Positions 2,438 through 36,436 of a stretch of DNA of 64,000 nucleotides are shown one piece after another. Source of the stretch: Phycisphaerales bacterium. GTDB taxonomy: Bacteria > Planctomycetota > Phycisphaerae > UBA1845. The stretch is from the NCBI GenBank assembly GCA_020852275.1, contig JADZBE010000031.1, forward strand, positions 49,250 through 113,249. Reading direction: 5' to 3'. The position numbers and the translations under genes were made by a program. Position 1 is the stretch's first letter. Every line of letters starts with the position of its first letter. The notes beneath the pieces were generated by a model, which worked only from the letters and a program-made list of their open reading frames with translations, did no database searches and had not been told where the DNA came from.

Positions 2438-3946
2438 CTACGACAAGTTCATCGTCATCAGGAACTCGCGGTTCGTCCGCACTTTGCTCAGGCGCGCGGT
2501 GAGCAGCTCGACGGACTCGACGATGTTCATGTCCGACACCACGCGGCGCAGGCGGAAGATCAGCTCCAGCTCCTTCGGGTCCAGCAGCAGCTCTTCCTTG
2601 CGCGTGCCGCTCGCCGGGATGTCGATCGCCGGCCAGACGCGCTTGTCCACGAGACGGCGGTCGAGGTGCAGTTCGCTGTTGCCCGTGCCCTTGAACTCCT
2701 CAAAGATGACCTCGTCCATCTTCGAGCCGGTATCGACAAGCGCCGTGCCGATGATTGTGAGGCTGCCGCCTTCCTCGATGTTGCGGGCGGCGCCGAAAAA
2801 TCGCTTGGGCTTCTGCAGCGCGTTGGCGTCGATGCCGCCGGAGAGAATCTTGCCGGAGTGCGGCATCTCGGTGTTGTGCGCCCGCGCCAGGCGCGTGATC
2901 GAGTCCAGCAGGATCACCACGTCCTTGCCGTACTCCACCAGCCGCCGCGCGTTTTCGATCACCATGTCCGCGACCTGCACGTGGCGCGAAGCCGGCTCGT
3001 CGAACGTGGAACTGATGACCTGCGCCTGCGTGTGGCGCTTCATCTCCGTGACTTCCTCCGGGCGCTCGTCGATGAGAAGGATGACGACGTGCACTTCCGT
3101 ATGGTTGGCGGAGATCGCGTTGGCGATCTTCTGAAGCAGGACGGTCTTGCCCGTGCGCGGGGGAGCGACGATCAGCATGCGCTGACCCTTGCCGATGGGC
3201 GTGACGAGGTCCACGACGCGCATGTTCAGTTCCTGCGGCGAGGTTTCAAGAATGATGCGGGAGTCCGGGTGAAGCGGCGTGAGGTCCTCGAAGTTGGTCT
3301 TCTCCATCACGACTTCGGGGTCTTCGTAGTTGATCGCCTCGACGCGAAGCAGCGCGAAGTAACGCTCGGATTCCTTCGGCGGACGTATCTGCCCCGACAC
3401 GACGTGTCCCGTCTTCAGGCCGAAGCGGCGGATCTGAGACGGACTGATGTAAATGTCGTCCGGACCGGGCAGGTAGTTGTATCCCGGCGAACGGAGGAAC
3501 CCGAAGCCGTCCGGGAGGATCTCGAGGACGCCCTCGCCGTACATCAGGCCGTTGCGGTTCACCCGCGCCTGGATGATGCGGAAGATGAGGTCCTGCTTCT
3601 TGAGTCCCGTGTATTCCTCCAGAGCTTCGGCCCGCGCCAGCTCGTGCAGCTCGTTGACGCTCATCTGCTGAAGCTGGGTGATGTGAAGCTGGCCGCGCTT
3701 GATTTCTTCATACTTGGCGTGCGTCTCGGGATCGAGAATCGGGGCGTCCGCGGGCGGTTCCGCGGAATCAGTCGCCGGCGGCGGTGGCGGAGGCGGAGCG
3801 GTCGCCACGGAGACATCGTCGATGTCGGCGGGCAGTCCTTCATAATGGGTGCGGGGCGCCTGCTTGCCGCGGGGCTTGCCGCCGCGACCCGGGGTCATGC
3901 TGCGACGTGTGGTGGAACGAGTCCTATCGGTTCCGGCTTTCGCCAT
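2438..3946 (-). CDS. rho: Transcription termination factor Rho
   Basis: [27 protein letters not shown], Walker [49 protein letters not shown]; Pro-rich N-terminal extension. Confidence 0.98.
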
Positions 3947-6937: not shown

Positions 6938-7939
6938 ATGAAGCAGCGGCACATGACGCTTCGGGAAAAGCTGAGCCATCCGCTGGTCACGGCCCTTCTG
7001 GCGCTGGCGCTCGTCCTCGCGCTGGGGTGCGTGTTTCACTATCAGGGAACGTTCTTCAAGTGGGGCACGCACCGCGACACGCTGCGCCAAGCTTCGGTGT
7101 ACGGCGTGCTCGCGTGCGGCATGACGGCCGTCATCCTCTGCGGCGGCATCGACCTGTCCGTGGGCAGCGTGCTGGCGCTGACGGCGGTGACGTTTTCGAT
7201 TCTCGGCATCCACCGCGGGTGGCCCGCATGGGCGGCGATCCCCGTCTCGCTGGCGGTCGGCACGGTTTGCGGCTGCGTCAGCGGCGCGATCATCGCTCTG
7301 TGGCGCATCCAGCCATTCATCGTGACCTTGGCGATGATGGTGCTCGCTCGCGGACTCGCCAAAACCGTCAGCGGCGGGATGAAGATCTCCACGGCCGTGC
7401 AGTCGGCGGATGGAACGTATCGCTACGTTGGATTGCCGCCGGTGTTCGAGGCGATCGACTCACGGCTGCTGGGCGGAAACGTGTCGGTGGTCACGGGGGT
7501 ATTTCTCCTGTGCGGCGGGCTGGCGTGGGCAGCGCTGGCCCGATCGCGCTGGGGACGCTGCGTTCACGCCATCGGCGGCAACGAGGAGGCTTCGCGACTT
7601 TCCGGCGTGCCAGTCGCGCCGGTGAAGATAAGTGTATACGCGCTGTGCGGACTGCTGGCTTCGATCGCCGGCATCTGCCAAGCCGCACAGGAGCAGCAGG
7701 GCGACCCTGAAACCGGCGCGGGCTACGAGCTTTCGGCGATTGCGATTGTGGTGATCGGCGGGACCAGCCTCCTGGGCGGTCGCGGCGGCGTGGGGCTGAC
7801 GCTGCTGGGCACGCTGACCATCGGGTATATCGAGAAGATCCTGAGCATCAACAACGTGCCCGAGTCCGGAAGGCTGATGCTGACCGGCGTGATCATCATC
7901 GCGGCGGTGCTGCTGCAGCGCGGAAGGTCTCGAGCGTAG
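6938..7939 (+). CDS. Monosaccharide ABC transporter permease (RbsC / BPD_transp_2 family)
   Basis: GVLACGMTAVILCGGIDLSVGS, IQPFIVTLAMM, GRCVHAIGGNEEASRLSGV, GAGYELSAIAIVVIGGTSLLGGRG. Confidence 0.93.
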   Translation: MKQRHMTLREKLSHPLVTALLALALVLALGCVFHYQGTFFKWGTHRDTLRQASVYGVLACGMTAVILCGGIDLSVGSVLALTAVTFSILGIHRGWPAWAAIPVSLAVGTVCGCVSGAIIALWRIQPFIVTLAMMVLARGLAKTVSGGMKISTAVQSADGTYRYVGLPPVFEAIDSRLLGGNVSVVTGVFLLCGGLAWAALARSRWGRCVHAIGGNEEASRLSGVPVAPVKISVYALCGLLASIAGICQAAQEQQGDPETGAGYELSAIAIVVIGGTSLLGGRGGVGLTLLGTLTIGYIEKILSINNVPESGRLMLTGVIIIAAVLLQRGRSRA

Positions 7940-30975: not shown

Positions 30976-31049
30976 TGTATCGAACCGGCGCAGGTTGCCA
31001 GATGCCCGGTCCTGGCCGCGCTCGAAGGCTCGGAGTGAAAGCAGATATC

Positions 31050-31153
31050 CGTCATTCCCGCGCAAGCGGGAATCGAGTCCCGTCATTCCCGCGCAGGCGG
31101 GAATCCAGTGGTCTTGCGGCGCGTCCTGGCCCCCCGCCTTCGCGGGGGTGACG
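31050..31153. repeat. CGTC-tagged REP composite 5 (2 x A forward, B reverse)
   Basis: cgtcattcccgcgcaagcgggaatcgag, cgtcattcccgcgcaggcgggaatccag, ctggccccccgccttcgcgggggtgacg. Confidence 0.92.
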
Positions 31154-31189
31154 AGATCGAAGATTGGTTCCAAGTTCAACGCCAGCCCC

Positions 31190-31918
31190 TCAAGGCGAGG
31201 GGCGAAGCGGCCCGCCGCCGTCGAGCGTTCTTCTCAACTCCGCGACCAAGTTCGCATCGAATCGCCCAGCGCCGGTGCGCGGGTCGCGGCGGCGCGCGGA
31301 ACTGTGAACCTGCGTGCAGCCCGTCGCCGCGACGATGGCCTCGACATGGTGCGGACGGACGCCGCCGCCGGGCAGGATCTCAATCCGCCCGCCCGCCTGC
31401 TCGCGCAGTCGCCTCAGCAGCGTCAACGCCTCCGCATCCGCGGCGCACGCCGACCGCCCTGAGGTCAGCACGCGCGAGAAGCCCAACGAGACGAGCGCCT
31501 CCAACGCGGCAAACGGATCGCGCGCCTCGTCGAACGCCCGATGAAACACCGCCGGCCTGCCCCGCGAAGCCGCCACCAGCCGCCGACACGCCCGCGCGTC
31601 CACCTCCCCTTCGGTGGTCAGCGCGCCGAATACGAACCCATCCGCTCCGCGCCCGCGCAGCGCCGCCGCATCGCCCGCCATCTGCTCCAGCTCGTCCTCC
31701 GCATAGACAAAGCCGCCGGCGCGACACCGAATCATCACCAGCACGGGACACGCCACGCCCTGCCGCACGGCTTGAAACGTCTCCAGCCGCGGCGTGAGAC
31801 CTCCGACGTCAAGGCGTGCGCAAAGCTCCAGCCGATCCGCGCCGCAGGCTTCCGCTGCAAGGGCGTCCACCACGGAATCGACGGCGATTTCCAAGATGAC
31901 GCGCGAGAGGTCGGACAT
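31190..31918 (-). CDS. cutC: CutC family protein
   Basis: LEIAVDS, GADRLELCARLDVGGLTP, VMIRCRAGGFVY, GFVFGALT, VFHRAFD, RVLTSG, ILPGGGV. Confidence 0.93.
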   Translation of the reverse strand: MSDLSRVILEIAVDSVVDALAAEACGADRLELCARLDVGGLTPRLETFQAVRQGVACPVLVMIRCRAGGFVYAEDELEQMAGDAAALRGRGADGFVFGALTTEGEVDARACRRLVAASRGRPAVFHRAFDEARDPFAALEALVSLGFSRVLTSGRSACAADAEALTLLRRLREQAGGRIEILPGGGVRPHHVEAIVAATGCTQVHSSARRRDPRTGAGRFDANLVAELRRTLDGGGPLRPSP

Positions 31919-31986
31919 GTCGGTCGCTCAACGCGGATTCCAGGCCCAACCTTCGTGCGCGTGGCGTGGCGCCGGTGCGAAACGGA

Positions 31987-32850
31987 TCAACTCGATTGAC
32001 GGCGGATCATGAATTCCAAGGACTCCCATCCTTTCAACTGCGATTCCGAGAGTGTGGCCGGTCGGTTCGTTGCCATATGGTGCCGCACAGCTCGAAGGAG
32101 GCGACGCTGCTTGCGGCGCAGATTCGGACGCTGGTTTACAACGAGGCCGCCGACAACCTGGCACTGATGCCGCCTGCGAATGTGCAGTTTGCGCCCCTGA
32201 TGCAGGGTGTAGCCCTCGTTCTCGACGATGAGCTTGACGCATCGGATCAGACGCCCAATTTCACGCGGAACATCCGTGGACTTTGAAAACGCCATGTCGT
32301 CGGCGTAACGGCTGTACGCCGCGCCGAACCGCCGGGCGGCGGCTTCGAGTCGCGCGTCGAGCTTGAAATTGACGAGGTTGCTGAGCATCGGACTGGTCGG
32401 GGCGCCTTGGGGCAGCGATTCCTCCCACGTGGTGAGTTGGGTCAGCACGGCGGCGGCGTCCTTCGACCAACCGACGCGCCGGCAGTATTCCTGAACGCGT
32501 GCGGCCGGCGTGCAGGCGAAGAAGTCCTTCAAGTCCAGCGTGACAACGACCTCCTTGCCTGCGTGAAGCGAAGCATGGCCGACGATGGAGAATCCTCGGC
32601 GATAGGCAACCGCGCGGGGATGAACTTTCAACCGTGCCAGGACGCGATGCAGGATTCGCCGCTGAATCGCCTTGAGTTCAGGCTCGGGGATCTGCAAAAC
32701 GCGCCGGCCGCCGCGACGCTTCGGAATCTCGACCTTGCGATAGGCCGGCCGAATCGACCTGAGCGCCTCCACGCTCACGCCCGTCCGTCGCGCAAGTTCT
32801 TCCACGCCGAGACCGGAGCGCTTTCCCGTCAGAAAGTCGAGCAGACCCAT
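31987..32850 (-). CDS. Retron-type reverse transcriptase (287 aa)
   Basis: AGGAGG RBS; Y..VEIPKRRGGRRVLQIPEPELKAIQ, AVAYRRGFSIVGHASLH, LDLKDFF, LPQGAPTSPMLSN, YSRYADDMAFS, RRRHQCQVVGGLVVN. No maturase domain. Confidence 0.9.
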   Translation of the reverse strand: MGLLDFLTGKRSGLGVEELARRTGVSVEALRSIRPAYRKVEIPKRRGGRRVLQIPEPELKAIQRRILHRVLARLKVHPRAVAYRRGFSIVGHASLHAGKEVVVTLDLKDFFACTPAARVQEYCRRVGWSKDAAAVLTQLTTWEESLPQGAPTSPMLSNLVNFKLDARLEAAARRFGAAYSRYADDMAFSKSTDVPREIGRLIRCVKLIVENEGYTLHQGRKLHIRRRHQCQVVGGLVVNQRPNLRRKQRRLLRAVRHHMATNRPATLSESQLKGWESLEFMIRRQSS

Positions 32851-32901
32851 GCCGGCACTCCTCCTGCCGAGCAACAAAGCGGGCGCGAAGCATGCTCCGC
32901 G

Positions 32902-33017
32902 CCCACCCCATCCTGCATTGTTGCCAACAATCGACCGGCTCTCCGGTCGCAGCGAACTCACCCGGTTGACGAATCATCAACCCGTGCTCTGCATTTGAGC
33001 ACCACCAGGATGGTGAG
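32902..33017 (-). ncRNA. Candidate retron msr-msd non-coding RNA
   Basis: Flanking inverted repeat (33006-33013 vs 32908-32915, CCATCCTG/CAGGATGG) encloses four hairpins that tile almost the whole interval; unpaired G at 33005 (minus strand) directly after the 5' arm; immediately upstream of a retron-type RT. Confidence 0.65.
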
Positions 33018-33020
33018 TAT

Positions 33021-33049
33021 ATGTTGAAAACGCGGATCGCGCGCGTCAA
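33021..33049 (-). promoter_or_regulatory. Candidate sigma70 promoter for the retron transcript
   Basis: TTGACG (33049-33044), 17-nt spacer, CAACAT (33026-33021); this would place the start site near 33014, at the 5' inverted-repeat arm. Confidence 0.45.
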
Positions 33050-33067
33050 GCTGGCGACGATGGCTCA

Positions 33068-36000
33068 TCAGCGCAAGATGATGCTCAACGTCTCACCGGC
33101 AGAAAGTGCGAGCATCTGATTCAACTCGAATCGCACGCAGGCTCCGGATTGCTCGAAACGTCCAGCGACCGCGGCCGGACCGCATTCGAGCTTGATCGAG
33201 CCGACGCGAACACCTCCCGCGACCTCGAACCCAAGGCTCCTGAGGCGCAGGCGACCCTGTTCGATCCTGATTTGGCAGCGCTGCTCTCCACTTGCACGCT
33301 TCTGCGTGAACGTCCCCCATCCCTCGGCCGAGGTGAACGCCGCCTTGAAGTTCTCCGGCGAAAACTTTGGCGCGAACGCCAGATGTCCCTTCGGACCGTG
33401 GTGCTGGTAGCCCAGCGCCGCGAGGTACACGCCGAAGCCGGCCATGGCTCGGGCGTAGTGGCTGCTGCACTCCACTTCGTTGTACGGGTTGCGCTTCGAC
33501 GGGTGGTGGCGGTCGTGCAACATGCGGACGATCGCCAGACCCTCCTCGACCAGGCCTTCGCGGATCATGTGCGCCGCGACCTGGTATTCGTAGCCCGTCC
33601 AGCATTCGTTGAAATACACCGCCGCCCAGGCGTCGCCGCTCTTGCCGGCGGCGCTCTCGATGCCCCCGTGAGGCCAGGTGCACATCAGCACGCCGCCCTC
33701 GCCGGGCATGGCGTACCAGCGCCCGCCCTTGATGATCCTCTCAATGCGCGCGCGGTAGGTTCCGACGTCCGGCGTGAAGCAGTATTGGTAGATGGCCTGC
33801 AGCGCCGAGCGCGACGGCGCCGGCGGCACGATGCGCGGCAGGTCAAGCTGGTGCGCCCACGACTGACCGAGCAACTGGTCGGTGTGAATGCCGTCGCCGG
33901 TGTTGTTGGTTTCCGGATGCGCGGGATCGACGCGATGCACGAACGACTCGCCGTTGAACATCACTTCGACCATCCGCTTCGCGCCGGATTCGGCGACCTT
34001 GCGGCATGTCCCGGCGAACTCCGCGTCATTCATCTCCAGCGCCATCGCCTCGCCGGCGCGCACGGCCGCCAGGTACAGCGACGAAATCCACGGAATCGCG
34101 CCGTACCACGTGGTGTCGAGCGTGTTGTACTGCGCGTCGTCGAGGATGCCGTCGGCGTCCTTGTCGCGTGCGAGGAGCAGCTCCAGCGCCTTGCGCACGC
34201 GCGGATAGACGTTCTTGAGAAACGCGTCGTCCGCGGACATCTGGTGCTCGCGGTAGGCGCGGAGGATCGTGCCCGCCTGCCCATCCACCGCCAGTTCCTT
34301 GGCCGCCTCGCCGCGGTAGTCGATCTGACCGGTGTCGTCGTGGAAGCTCGCGCCAAAGTCGATCATCTCGCGCGTCGCGCGTTCAAGCTGCGGGAACGTC
34401 CGCGCGATGGCCTGCGCATACTGCCACACGTGCGTGCACGTGCCCGCGCAGCAGTACGTGCCTTCCCAGCCGTAGAAGCGCCCGTTGTTGAAGCGGTAGC
34501 ACGTTGCGGTGGCCAGCGTGGAGACGGTGGCGAACGTGCGGTCGAGGAACCAGTGGGGCAGCGTGGAGTCGTACCAGGTCTTGTGCCACAGGCGCGTCTG
34601 CGAGGTCAGGCGGTCGAAGTTCGCCAGCACGTAATCAAGGACGGCGTTTGCATCGGTAAACCGCGTGCCGTAGTGCCGGCGCAGCGATCGATGCTCCGTC
34701 AGGAAACTGAGCGAATCCCACCACAGCCCGTCGAAGTGCCAGGCGACGATGAAGGTGATCGTGCGCGATTCTCCGGGCTGAAGCAGGAAGCCGCCCAGCA
34801 GCGCGCTGACCGGCTTGTGCGCCGACCCTTCGGGGGTCGCGGTCGGGTCCGTGCCTGCGGGCGCGTCCAGCTTCTCGGTCGCGCTGCCCGGCAACCTCCG
34901 CACATCGACGTCGTCGATCATGAAGAAGTGGCCCAGGTTCGCCGTGCGCGCCGCGAGCGCGATCGTGCCCTGGTCCGGCAGCGATTCGAGCTTGACGTCG
35001 TCGCCGCGCTGCGTGTCGGTGAACACGATCTCATCGACGCCCACCTGTCCCCAGCTTCCCGTCCAGCCGTCCACGATCTGCAGCACGGCCAGCCGCCCGG
35101 CGAACTCCTTCACGTCGAAGTGCTCGACGCGCATCCGGTTATTGTTCGCGCCGGTGGCGGTTCGCACGACGGCGCCGTCGATCAGCAGGTTGACGCACGT
35201 TTGCGCCGGGTGATTGCCGCCGCCGATGCGAAGGCGGATGAAGTTCCGCTCGAGGGCGAACTCGCGGCTGCTGAGCGTGCCGATGTGCGTGTCGGCTTTG
35301 CCCACGTCTTCACCGTTGCGCGTCTGGTGCGTGTTGACGGTGCGCTCGCCCTGCGCGTTGAGGTCGCCCATGTAGGACGCGCGGTCTTTCACGACCACGG
35401 GACCGTCCCCGAAGGCTGAGCCGGTGACAACCCAGCCTTCGTACGCCGGCTTCTCGAAATCCTCGAACACGATGTCAGGCCGGTCCGAAGGCGCGGGTTC
35501 TTTCGCGGGTCCGGGTTCCGCGCGGCAGACCAAGGCCATCGCGTCGCGGATCTTCGCGCGGACGTTGCGCCGCTCGACGTTGATCTTGTCCCCCGCGGAG
35601 CCGGCGACCGTGTTCTGCAGCCAGCCGCTGATCGAGGCGTCCACGGCCTCCTGGCTTACGTTCTTGAGCGTGTAGTTGAGGATGACGCAAGGCAGGCCGG
35701 AATCGTCCGCGTTGCCCGGGATAAAAGGAGAAAACGCTTCGAGATCGACGGTCACCGGGACCGTGGGGTCGCGGTATTCAACGAAGCCGATGGGGTACTG
35801 ACCCTTGAACGTGATCTCCGGGAATCCGGTGACATCGAGCGGGCGTGTCACATCCCTGTCACCGATCTGGACGCGAAGGGCGAAGCCCTGCTCGATGGGG
35901 GAGCTGGGACGGACGGGGTTGGCGTAGTGCGGGCCTTGCGAGCTGCGCCAGTTGTCCGAGGCGGGGAGGTTGAAGATGTCCCAGTGCCACAGCTTGCCAT

Positions 36001-36436
36001 CGCCGCCGAGGTAGAGCTGCCCGGTGCAGATGCCGCCGATGGGCATGCCGATGAAGTACAGCTCGCCCTTGGAATGGCGATACACCGACGGCTCGCCGCG
36101 CTCGAAGAGCGAACGCACCCAGGCGGGGTCGAACTTCTTGTCCGCCGGGACGGGGAACGCGCCGAGGTCCGAGGATTCGAACGGTCCGGCGATGGCGCGC
36201 AGCGGCGCCGCGCAGCCGGAGAGCACCCCGCCCGCGCCGACGCCGGCGGCGGCGAGGAAGGCGCGGCGGCTCAGAGAGTCCGTCGGCGGAGCGCAGCAGG
36301 GCTGAAGATTCGCAGGACGGTCTGTTGCACCGGCGTCCGCGCTGACTGAGGTCCGCGGCTCGCTAGACGTGCATGCGCCGTCGCTGCAGCCGCAGGAAAC
36401 CGATCGCGGTTCAGACGCGTCGACAGGATTTGGCAT
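33068..36436 (-). CDS. Tat-exported GH116-like glycoside hydrolase with an inserted beta-sandwich domain
   Basis: SRRAFLAAAG Tat motif; GMPIGGICTGQLYLGGDG; YGWEGTYCCAGTCTHVW; QYNTLD; DQLLGQ.WA; ECWTG.EY; RNPYNEVECSSHYARAM. Confidence 0.85.
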   Translation of the reverse strand: MPNPVDASEPRSVSCGCSDGACTSSEPRTSVSADAGATDRPANLQPCCAPPTDSLSRRAFLAAAGVGAGGVLSGCAAPLRAIAGPFESSDLGAFPVPADKKFDPAWVRSLFERGEPSVYRHSKGELYFIGMPIGGICTGQLYLGGDGKLWHWDIFNLPASDNWRSSQGPHYANPVRPSSPIEQGFALRVQIGDRDVTRPLDVTGFPEITFKGQYPIGFVEYRDPTVPVTVDLEAFSPFIPGNADDSGLPCVILNYTLKNVSQEAVDASISGWLQNTVAGSAGDKINVERRNVRAKIRDAMALVCRAEPGPAKEPAPSDRPDIVFEDFEKPAYEGWVVTGSAFGDGPVVVKDRASYMGDLNAQGERTVNTHQTRNGEDVGKADTHIGTLSSREFALERNFIRLRIGGGNHPAQTCVNLLIDGAVVRTATGANNNRMRVEHFDVKEFAGRLAVLQIVDGWTGSWGQVGVDEIVFTDTQRGDDVKLESLPDQGTIALAARTANLGHFFMIDDVDVRRLPGSATEKLDAPAGTDPTATPEGSAHKPVSALLGGFLLQPGESRTITFIVAWHFDGLWWDSLSFLTEHRSLRRHYGTRFTDANAVLDYVLANFDRLTSQTRLWHKTWYDSTLPHWFLDRTFATVSTLATATCYRFNNGRFYGWEGTYCCAGTCTHVWQYAQAIARTFPQLERATREMIDFGASFHDDTGQIDYRGEAAKELAVDGQAGTILRAYREHQMSADDAFLKNVYPRVRKALELLLARDKDADGILDDAQYNTLDTTWYGAIPWISSLYLAAVRAGEAMALEMNDAEFAGTCRKVAESGAKRMVEVMFNGESFVHRVDPAHPETNNTGDGIHTDQLLGQSWAHQLDLPRIVPPAPSRSALQAIYQYCFTPDVGTYRARIERIIKGGRWYAMPGEGGVLMCTWPHGGIESAAGKSGDAWAAVYFNECWTGYEYQVAAHMIREGLVEEGLAIVRMLHDRHHPSKRNPYNEVECSSHYARAMAGFGVYLAALGYQHHGPKGHLAFAPKFSPENFKAAFTSAEGWGTFTQKRASGEQRCQIRIEQGRLRLRSLGFEVAGGVRVGSIKLECGPAAVAGRFEQSGACVRFELNQMLALSAGETLSIILR

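Follow-up and report, generated by a model that had tools for sequence, protein, structure and literature searches.

What is a reverse transcriptase (RT) gene doing between a glycoside hydrolase gene and cutC in a Phycisphaerales bacterium, and what is the structured region directly upstream of it? The gene lies at 31987-32850 on the minus strand of the window, by which we mean the whole 64,000-nt stretch of DNA that was analysed. The initial annotation had proposed a retron that stands alone, with an msr-msd RNA and a promoter of its own and no effector gene beside it. We conclude that the locus is probably an intact stand-alone retron cassette, made up of a promoter, an msr-msd noncoding RNA (ncRNA), a terminator-like hairpin and the RT, and that it belongs to a lineage of compact RTs (~290 aa) outside the current type models. 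That the enzyme is a retron RT and the RNA its cognate ncRNA can be held with high confidence.

The reverse transcriptase and the RNA upstream of it

Judged by its sequence and its predicted fold, the open reading frame (ORF) at 31987-32850 is a retron-type RT. The protein (P0001) carries the motifs DLKDFF, LPQGAPTSP and YADD, with HASLH as region X and VGG as region Y. RVT_1 was the sole domain seen by Pfam, and both Pfam and the AlphaFold model (predicted local distance difference test score, pLDDT, 93.4) describe a bare 287-aa RT domain. In the PADLOC search the best model for P0001 was RT_XIII (8e-75), and the best 25 of the 58 matched families were retron RT models. The NCBIfam results were similar, with 206 bits for retron_St85_RT versus 49 bits for the group II intron RT, 40 bits for Drt2 (cut-off 390) and 19 bits for Drt3a (cut-off 200). 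A profile of 40 related RTs (hereafter the family) searched against the PDB scored 194 bits with the Ec86 RT, 182 bits with the Ec67 RT and 48 bits with the GsI-IIC RT.

Structural comparison of the P0001 model with Foldseek gave retron RTs for all of the best 18 matches. The Ec86 RT was matched with a template modelling (TM) score of 0.82 and a root mean square deviation of 2.9 A over 280 columns at 29% identity, whereas the RTs of group II introns, diversity-generating retroelements, DRT2 and DRT9 scored at most 0.66 (DRT2/DRT9, 0.59-0.60). P0001 was thus placed in the retron clade by sequence and by fold, and outside the UG/DRT class (DRT2/DRT9). In the family consensus both canonical retron hallmarks, NAxxH and VTG, are present (SIVTNAxxH, QxVTGLVVN), of which the window RT keeps the H and the G, together with YADD.

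The elements of the cassette are listed below in the order of transcription, where a1 and a2 are the arms that pair with each other, H1 to H4 are the hairpins between them and R1 is the covariance model described below.

33021-33049, minus strand: sigma-70-like promoter, with the -35 element TTGACG (33049-33044), a 17-nt spacer and the -10 element CAACAT (33026-33021), ~7 nt 5' of a1
32908-33013, minus strand: msr-msd-type ncRNA from a1 to a2, 106 nt, supported by the fold and by R1
33006-33013, minus strand: a1 arm CCATCCTG (RNA CCAUCCUG), pairs with a2
33005, minus strand: candidate branching (priming) G, the first base 3' of a1, facing G32916
32984-33002, minus strand: H1, msr hairpin GUGCUC-AAAUGCA-GAGCAC (helix 2)
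32964-32982, minus strand: H2, msr hairpin GGUUGAUG-AUU-CGUCAACC with an 8-bp stem (helix 3)
32951-32962, minus strand: H3, a weak 4-bp GGUG/CGCU form of the family hairpin GGUCC-N4-GGACC, from the fold and the alignment
32932-32949, minus strand: lineage-specific hairpin CGACCGG-AGAG-CCGGUCG, around the GAGAG linker of the family
32917-32931, minus strand: H4, small 'msd' hairpin AUUGU-UGGCA-ACAAU (ATTGTT/AACAAT)
32916, minus strand: G facing the candidate branching G, directly 5' of a2, presumed first template position
32908-32915, minus strand: a2 arm CAGGATGG (RNA CAGGAUGG), pairs with a1
32870-32907, minus strand: terminator-like element, a 13-bp GC-rich hairpin (32907-32878) with the T-rich tail UUGUUGCU
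32860-32865, minus strand: Shine-Dalgarno sequence AGGAGG, 9 nt 5' of the RT ATG, read from the sequence
31987-32850, minus strand: retron-type RT ORF, 287 aa (P0001), ATG at 32850 and end at 31987

Re-reading the minus strand showed that every element named in the initial annotation, from the promoter to the YADD RT and on to cutC at 68 nt and GH116, lies where it had been put. The hairpin given there as GGTTGA/TCAACC (32982-32964) was correctly located, but its stem has 8 bp (GGUUGAUG/CGUCAACC) and not 6. The core of the GC-rich hairpin, 32904-32881, extends to 13 bp at 32907-32878. The fold that had been suggested as a check reproduced the proposed layout, as the minimum-free-energy structure of 32851-33030 contained all of it at -86.2 kcal/mol (z = -4.8; none of 200 shuffles equal).

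To compare the RNA across relatives we used R1, which was built from 14 sequences and scored the window ncRNA at 130 bits (E = 8e-21). R1 matched directly 5' of the RT and on the RT strand in 31 loci. In a sample of the phylum it matched in 24 of 301 genomes (~8%), with the RT immediately 3' each time. The full alignment comprised 56 ncRNA copies from 54 related loci in several phyla, directly 5' of the RT; the lineage also occurs in Acidobacteriota, Armatimonadota and Hydrogenedentes. At loci with retron RTs of other types, among them true type XIII loci (L005 and L010) and those of the clade-11 type, R1 gave no match, and an Rfam search (evalue mode) of 31000-34500 returned chance matches alone, with no retron or RT-associated family.

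In the 56 copies 94.4% of the alignment cells were paired, compared with 74.5% in shuffles and 37-45% in slid controls; the R1 alignment was fitted to the model, which favours the pairing figures somewhat, and the margins over the controls are very large. Changes on both sides were found for 36 of the 40 pairs, so the covariation of hairpins and arms that the initial annotation had asked for in orthologous loci was present. Helix 1, formed by a1 and a2, was 97.5% paired with compensatory changes in 7 of its 8 pairs. Most relatives have GCUGYCUUG/CAAGRCAGC here, unlike the window; the arm sequences change among relatives, and the pairing and the opposing Gs are retained. A G after a1 and a G before a2 were present in 17 of 18 parsed loci, and the exception, L101, has a G before the true a2. 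Two opposing Gs are a retron feature (Mestre et al., 2020, PMC7736814), and in the window G33005 faces G32916 between paired ends that enclose internal msr hairpins.

The other helices behaved similarly. Helix 2 (H1) was 98.7% paired, with compensatory changes in all 6 pairs. Helix 3 (H2) was 99.3% paired with covariation in 5 of 8 pairs, and its near-invariant core GAUG-UUU-CGUC makes it the most conserved element of the family. Helix 4 (H3) showed 80% pairing across the family; in the window lineage it is degenerate. Helix 5, the terminator-like hairpin, was 92% paired, with compensatory changes in 13 of 13 pairs, and the 10 nt after it averaged 4.5 T where 1.8 would be expected; U-tracts were clear in the relatives of lower GC content. 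At the other end of the unit, 31 of the 56 copies had TTGAC between -30 and -35 relative to the model start, in 28 cases at -33/-34, and the box was invariant among the relatives of ~80% identity.

The order of elements in the family is promoter, a1 (8-9 nt), G, YG(G), H1, H2, H3, GAGAG linker, H4, G and a2, followed by the GC-rich hairpin with its T-rich tail and, only 20-60 nt beyond the hairpin, by the RT start. In the ~80%-identity relatives the region from promoter to terminator is nearly unchanged while the flanks drift. Relatives with 42-58% RT identity lie in unrelated contexts and have the same architecture with different a1/a2 and stem sequences. Taken together, these comparisons indicate that the upstream RNA is a real, selected element belonging to the RT. 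They also make H1 and H2 the msr, and the hairpin 3' of a2 behaves like an intrinsic terminator that would separate the ncRNA from the RT. H2 is likely the stem-loop by which the RT recognises its RNA.

The template probably spans the 47 nt from H3 through G32916. A perfect H4 hairpin of at least 5 bp that ends at most 3 nt from a2 was found in 33 of the 56 copies, with 31 different 5' arms, and its loop was CGC in 21 copies (UCGCA counting the flanking U-A pair). Copies of the core group kept a constant spacing of 47-51 nt between H3 and a2. The GAGA(G) linker motif is conserved in the family, and the extra hairpin around it occurs only in the window, L060 and L063. The 40-50 nt and two hairpins that had been proposed for the msDNA are thus a fair reading of the template, but only H4 is family-wide and the first hairpin is specific to the lineage.

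Several variants of the RNA were observed. A minority of copies, for example L095 and L116, have long stems in place of the small H4. Tandem ncRNA units stand before a single RT in two genomes (L180, 1335-1488 and 1501-1651; L186, 1306-1438 and 1501-1656); those of L180 have identical a1/a2 arms and different H1 and H4, and at such loci one RT may serve two templates. RNAalifold proposed a further pairing, of GYG after a1 with the CGC of the H4 loop, which offered no covariation to test and was excluded from the model. An H2-like motif, GGYYGRYG-UUU-CGYCRRCC, was seen upstream of a distant retron RT of a different type (39% identity; L129, ~3801-3936), and a weak one, on the other strand, close to an RT of the clade-11 type in Myxococcus (L019, 5144-5233, minus strand). 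Outside the family the motif may be a widely shared RT recognition stem-loop, or it may be chance.

The window lineage has changes of its own in both parts. At residues ~91-96 and 233-235 of the RT, NAxxH has become HASLH and VTG has become VGG (VVGG or VIAG in relatives). Alongside these, the RNA has a new a1/a2 sequence, an H2 loop of AUU instead of UUU and a degenerate H3. These joint changes may reflect co-evolution of RT and RNA.

Place of the family among known retrons

RT_XIII was the best PADLOC model for the window RT and for nine of nine other family representatives, with scores of 250-287 bits over model positions ~143-411 of 469. True members score far higher on their own models, with 529-538 bits at full cover for type XIII, 450-550 bits for RT_other and RT_outgroup and 363 bits for type X, and the family RTs reach about half the score of true members on every PADLOC RT model. 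For the window RT the further scores were 203 bits with RT_Ec107-like, 234 bits with RT_outgroup (partial coverage) and 244 bits with RT_other. We take the PADLOC 'outgroup' to be clade 11, from the covariance model name 'OutgroupA'.

In RT trees of the kind that the initial annotation had called for, the family formed a separate clade. In a FastTree of 168 RTs the ncRNA-bearing RTs formed one clade (Shimodaira-Hasegawa (SH)-like support 96), and in an IQ-TREE of 59 RTs the family was monophyletic (SH-aLRT support, from the approximate likelihood ratio test, 92; core 99). The nearest labelled neighbour in both trees was the type X RT of L007 (Planctomycetota), with weak support (SH-like 44; SH-aLRT 82). 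The XIII and clade-11-type clades, themselves well supported, joined the family in an unresolved polytomy in the IQ-TREE, and the XIII clade (SH-aLRT 99) excluded it. From these results we conclude that the family is probably a separate lineage close to clades 7 (type X), 10 (type XIII) and 11 of Mestre et al. The scores and its separate position in both trees set it outside clades 2 and 11, and 250 bits at partial cover set the window RT outside type XIII (clade 10).

Orphan (msr-msd)-RT cassettes have already been reported from the Retron-Eco5 (Ec107) branch of clade 2 and from clade 11, and it was left open whether such retrons rely on trans-acting effectors or function in another way (Mestre et al., 2020, PMC7736814). 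The window locus is like them a bare cassette with no specifically associated protein, set among housekeeping genes. However, their RTs belong to clades 2 and 11, the clade-11-type RTs sampled here have ~440 aa compared with ~290 aa in the family, and R1 found no match at the loci of those RTs.

The type XIII retrons (Mx162, Mx65, Sa163 and Ne144; RT clade 10) share with the family RT_XIII as the best model and the same unresolved super-group. In contrast to the family, they have an N-terminal extension of ~140 aa, which the family is missing, and the partners SWIM_XIII and HEAT-ARM_XIII; neither a WH-SWIM nor a HEAT/ARM protein lies beside the window RT. The multicopy single-stranded DNA (msDNA) of Mx162 is a long 162-nt stem, whereas the hairpin that forms the window msd has 6 bp. 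Type X retrons (RT clade 7, with an IHF-like/VHL-like partner) have an RT of similarly compact size, and RT_X was the only PADLOC model that aligned with the window RT end to end (15-269 of 272). However, family RTs scored 216-248 bits on it compared with 363 bits for a true member, and the family has no conserved upstream partner; the window RT is placed neither in clade 7 nor beside an upstream IHF-like/VHL-like gene. Retron-Eco1 (Ec86) is like the window cassette in its RT fold and in the RNA order of a1, G, msr hairpins, template and a2. It differs in having an effector, composed of NDT and a DNA-binding protein, and in its msDNA, which is 86 nt long and includes a long stem, whereas the window cassette has no effector and a template of ~47 nt.

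A 2026 SPIRE survey listed 26 'type XIII' candidates in Planctomycetota and found SWIM partners in 50 of 143 type XIII loci overall; it does not describe the present lineage. Effector-less retrons as such are already known; this widespread lineage, together with its RNA, appears to be undescribed.

Neighbouring genes and the search for a partner

The RT gene is flanked upstream by a GH116 glycoside hydrolase gene and downstream by cutC, whose ATG lies 68 nt past the RT end on the same strand. When all ORFs of 80 aa or more lying within ~7 kb were compared all against all by BLASTP in 31 loci, nothing was shared but the RT and overlapping alternative frames, and therefore cutC and GH116 are bystanders. 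The results confirmed the initial claim that no effector is encoded in cis, as no conserved neighbour was found in these loci, the window RT is a bare domain with no fused effector, and no protein was specifically associated with the cassette, as in orphan retrons. A tblastx comparison of the flanks in 48-53 loci, over 400 nt on the upstream and 500 nt on the downstream side, gave matches only between near-identical relatives and no conserved small ORF, so that a small ORF in a hybrid RNA like that of type VI was not seen. Eight annotated contexts of family members were all different and none was a defence island.

Could cutC or GH116 nevertheless be the third part of a tripartite system? The short distance on the same strand suggested this for cutC, and in L060 the RT stop even overlaps the cutC start. 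However, the adjacency of RT and cutC is confined to the window, L060 and L063, which are relatives of ~80% identity, and other family members have unrelated neighbours. The coupling to cutC entertained in the initial annotation, and the conserved synteny by which it was to be judged, were not borne out. In congeners that lack the RT, GH116 and cutC are found on separate contigs and have other neighbours, and neither CutC nor GH116 matched a PADLOC model. Synteny across the family rules out both genes as effectors, and on the sequence comparisons this explanation appears already refuted and is extremely improbable.

The same comparison showed that the GH116-retron-cutC junction (window 31190-36436) is a synteny breakpoint relative to the RT-less genomes of the genus, because there GH116 and cutC stand apart; the gene that follows GH116 has its homologue on contig C9 of the window genome, and a gene flanking cutC has its homologue on contig C13. 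With the two genes on separate contigs, these genomes showed no clean empty site. A search around the cassette for direct or inverted repeats, such as would delimit a mobile unit, gave short chance matches only.

We also searched for partners in trans. The genome (97% complete) has one retron RT and one ncRNA copy, and the RT-DUF3800_VII-A1 models (PDLC02957 and PDLC02958) likewise found a single retron-like RT in it. The type XIII partner models PDLC02919 and PDLC02972 were taken from the true type XIII locus L010, where the partners are present and serve as a control. No SWIM_XIII or HEAT-ARM_XIII homologue was found beside the RT or elsewhere in the 97%-complete genome.

One sub-lineage of the RT family has a C-terminal TIGR03067 (Planc_TIGR03067) domain of ~105 aa (L277, 1608-3172, P0082; also P0029, P0050, P0051, P0056 and P0059) and retains the upstream ncRNA (R1 53.6 bits). 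C-terminal fusions in retrons are usually effectors, and the TIGR03067 domain may therefore be an undescribed fused effector or sensor domain. A phmmer search of the window genome with three of these C-terminal domains gave no match, so no trans partner of that kind was seen.

Product, mechanism and meaning of the cassette

Several results weigh against an intact cassette that makes msDNA and acts in defence. A search for RNA sequencing runs containing this stretch returned none. A generic consensus scan called neither the promoter nor the terminator in the window; the support for both is therefore comparative and comes from positional conservation in relatives, and the promoter of its own that the initial annotation proposed stands by the conserved TTGAC position and not by a scan call. 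The window RT deviates at both retron hallmarks, with HASLH for NAxxH and VGG for VTG, although the H and the G that it retains are the most conserved residues of these motifs (Mestre et al., 2020, PMC7736814). The L088 RT (7001-7897; 53% identical and inside the core clade) had no ncRNA in its 9.9-kb locus even with filters off. The msd of the window and of the family core is a 5-8 bp hairpin with a UCGCA-type loop and not the long stable stem-loop that is present in all consensus structures of the same study, and because of this the product could differ from classic msDNA. Finally, the cassette lies outside any defence island and IMG/VR viral contigs held no family member (best match 41% identical), so that a defence role is argued by analogy only.

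An alternative is that this is a retron-derived RT-ncRNA system without classic constitutive msDNA, in which complementary DNA (cDNA) is induced, as in type VI, or is itself the effector, as in DRT2 and DRT9. In type VI retrons msDNA is produced only after a trigger, and a hybrid RNA conceals a small toxic ORF (bioRxiv 10.1101/2025.10.22.683967). A product of this kind would agree with the lack of a cis effector in all 31 loci, with a terminator-like hairpin between RNA and RT, and with a template region that is very small, near-constant in the core group and carries GAGAG and UCGCA motifs, which is unusual for an msd. However, a1/a2 and the opposing Gs form the canonical priming geometry, and the RT is nearer to retron RTs than to those of DRT2 and DRT9, both in its TM score and in its Drt2 score, far below the cut-off. 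A hidden small ORF of the type VI kind was rejected, since none beside the ncRNA is conserved by tblastx, and the AUG of H2 opens frames of differing length or is missing (e.g., L085). A DRT2-like coding concatemer was rejected as well, because the hypervariable H4 stems and the lengths of the inserts vary freely, which speaks against a coding repeat. We regard this explanation as improbable.

The RT gave ratios of nonsynonymous to synonymous substitution (dN/dS) of 0.17-0.24, and the ncRNA was 91-95% identical where the RT gene was 78-83% identical and synonymous divergence (dS) was 0.5-0.8. Judged by these rates, the cassette is intact and selectively maintained. If a tripartite retron (type XIII or X, for instance) had lost its effector and were now a decaying, inert remnant, this would explain why the best model is RT_XIII while the SWIM and HEAT/ARM partners are absent, and why in the window lineage NAxxH and VTG are changed and H3 is degenerate; partner loss was indeed proposed for the Ec107 branch (Mestre et al., 2020, PMC7736814). 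Against decay stand the purifying selection on the RT (dN/dS ~0.2) and the conservation of the ncRNA far above neutral expectation. The two-part unit also recurs in 54 loci of several phyla with compensatory changes in every helix, and the whole clade, not a single twig, lacks a partner. A remnant is accordingly very improbable.

For the intact stand-alone cassette we propose the following mechanism. The ncRNA would be transcribed from its own sigma-70-like promoter, whose position is conserved and whose activity we infer. Most transcripts would stop at the hairpin after a2 and the RT would be translated from read-through, which would keep the RNA in excess over the enzyme. The RT would bind the near-invariant H2 stem-loop, while the pairing of a1 and a2 would set G33005 opposite G32916, and the RT would prime on the 2'-OH of G33005. 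By analogy with characterised retrons, it would then copy from 32916 to ~32962 and yield a branched msDNA of at most ~47 nt with two or three small hairpins. It is fairly likely that msDNA is made.

The particle of RT, msDNA and RNA would either act together with a host factor that is unlinked or constitute the functional output in its own right, because no protein effector is encoded in cis. An unlinked protein partner and no protein partner at all are about equally likely. The most likely role would be that of other retrons, the sensing of phage infection. This is the weakest step of the proposal, and a part in phage defence is possible yet somewhat doubtful. We also considered a truly two-component retron, in which the particle of RT, miniature msDNA and RNA is the output, as a decoy, sensor or regulator with no effector, and in which the TIGR03067 sub-lineage marks the birth of a new fused effector or sensor class; this version is rather unlikely.

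How effector-less retrons function is a question that Mestre et al. (2020) raised explicitly, and the family offers a large, diverse and cleanly defined set in which to test it, with an RT of ~290 aa, a well-supported RNA of 106 nt and a fixed promoter and terminator. It also contains natural variants, with long msd stems, tandem RNAs and a fused TIGR03067 domain. The very compact RT and the short template are of practical interest for retron-based DNA production. The family extends retron diversity into phyla that the current type models cover poorly. Should the cassette turn out to act with no protein partner, the picture of retrons as obligately tripartite systems of the toxin-antitoxin kind would have to change.

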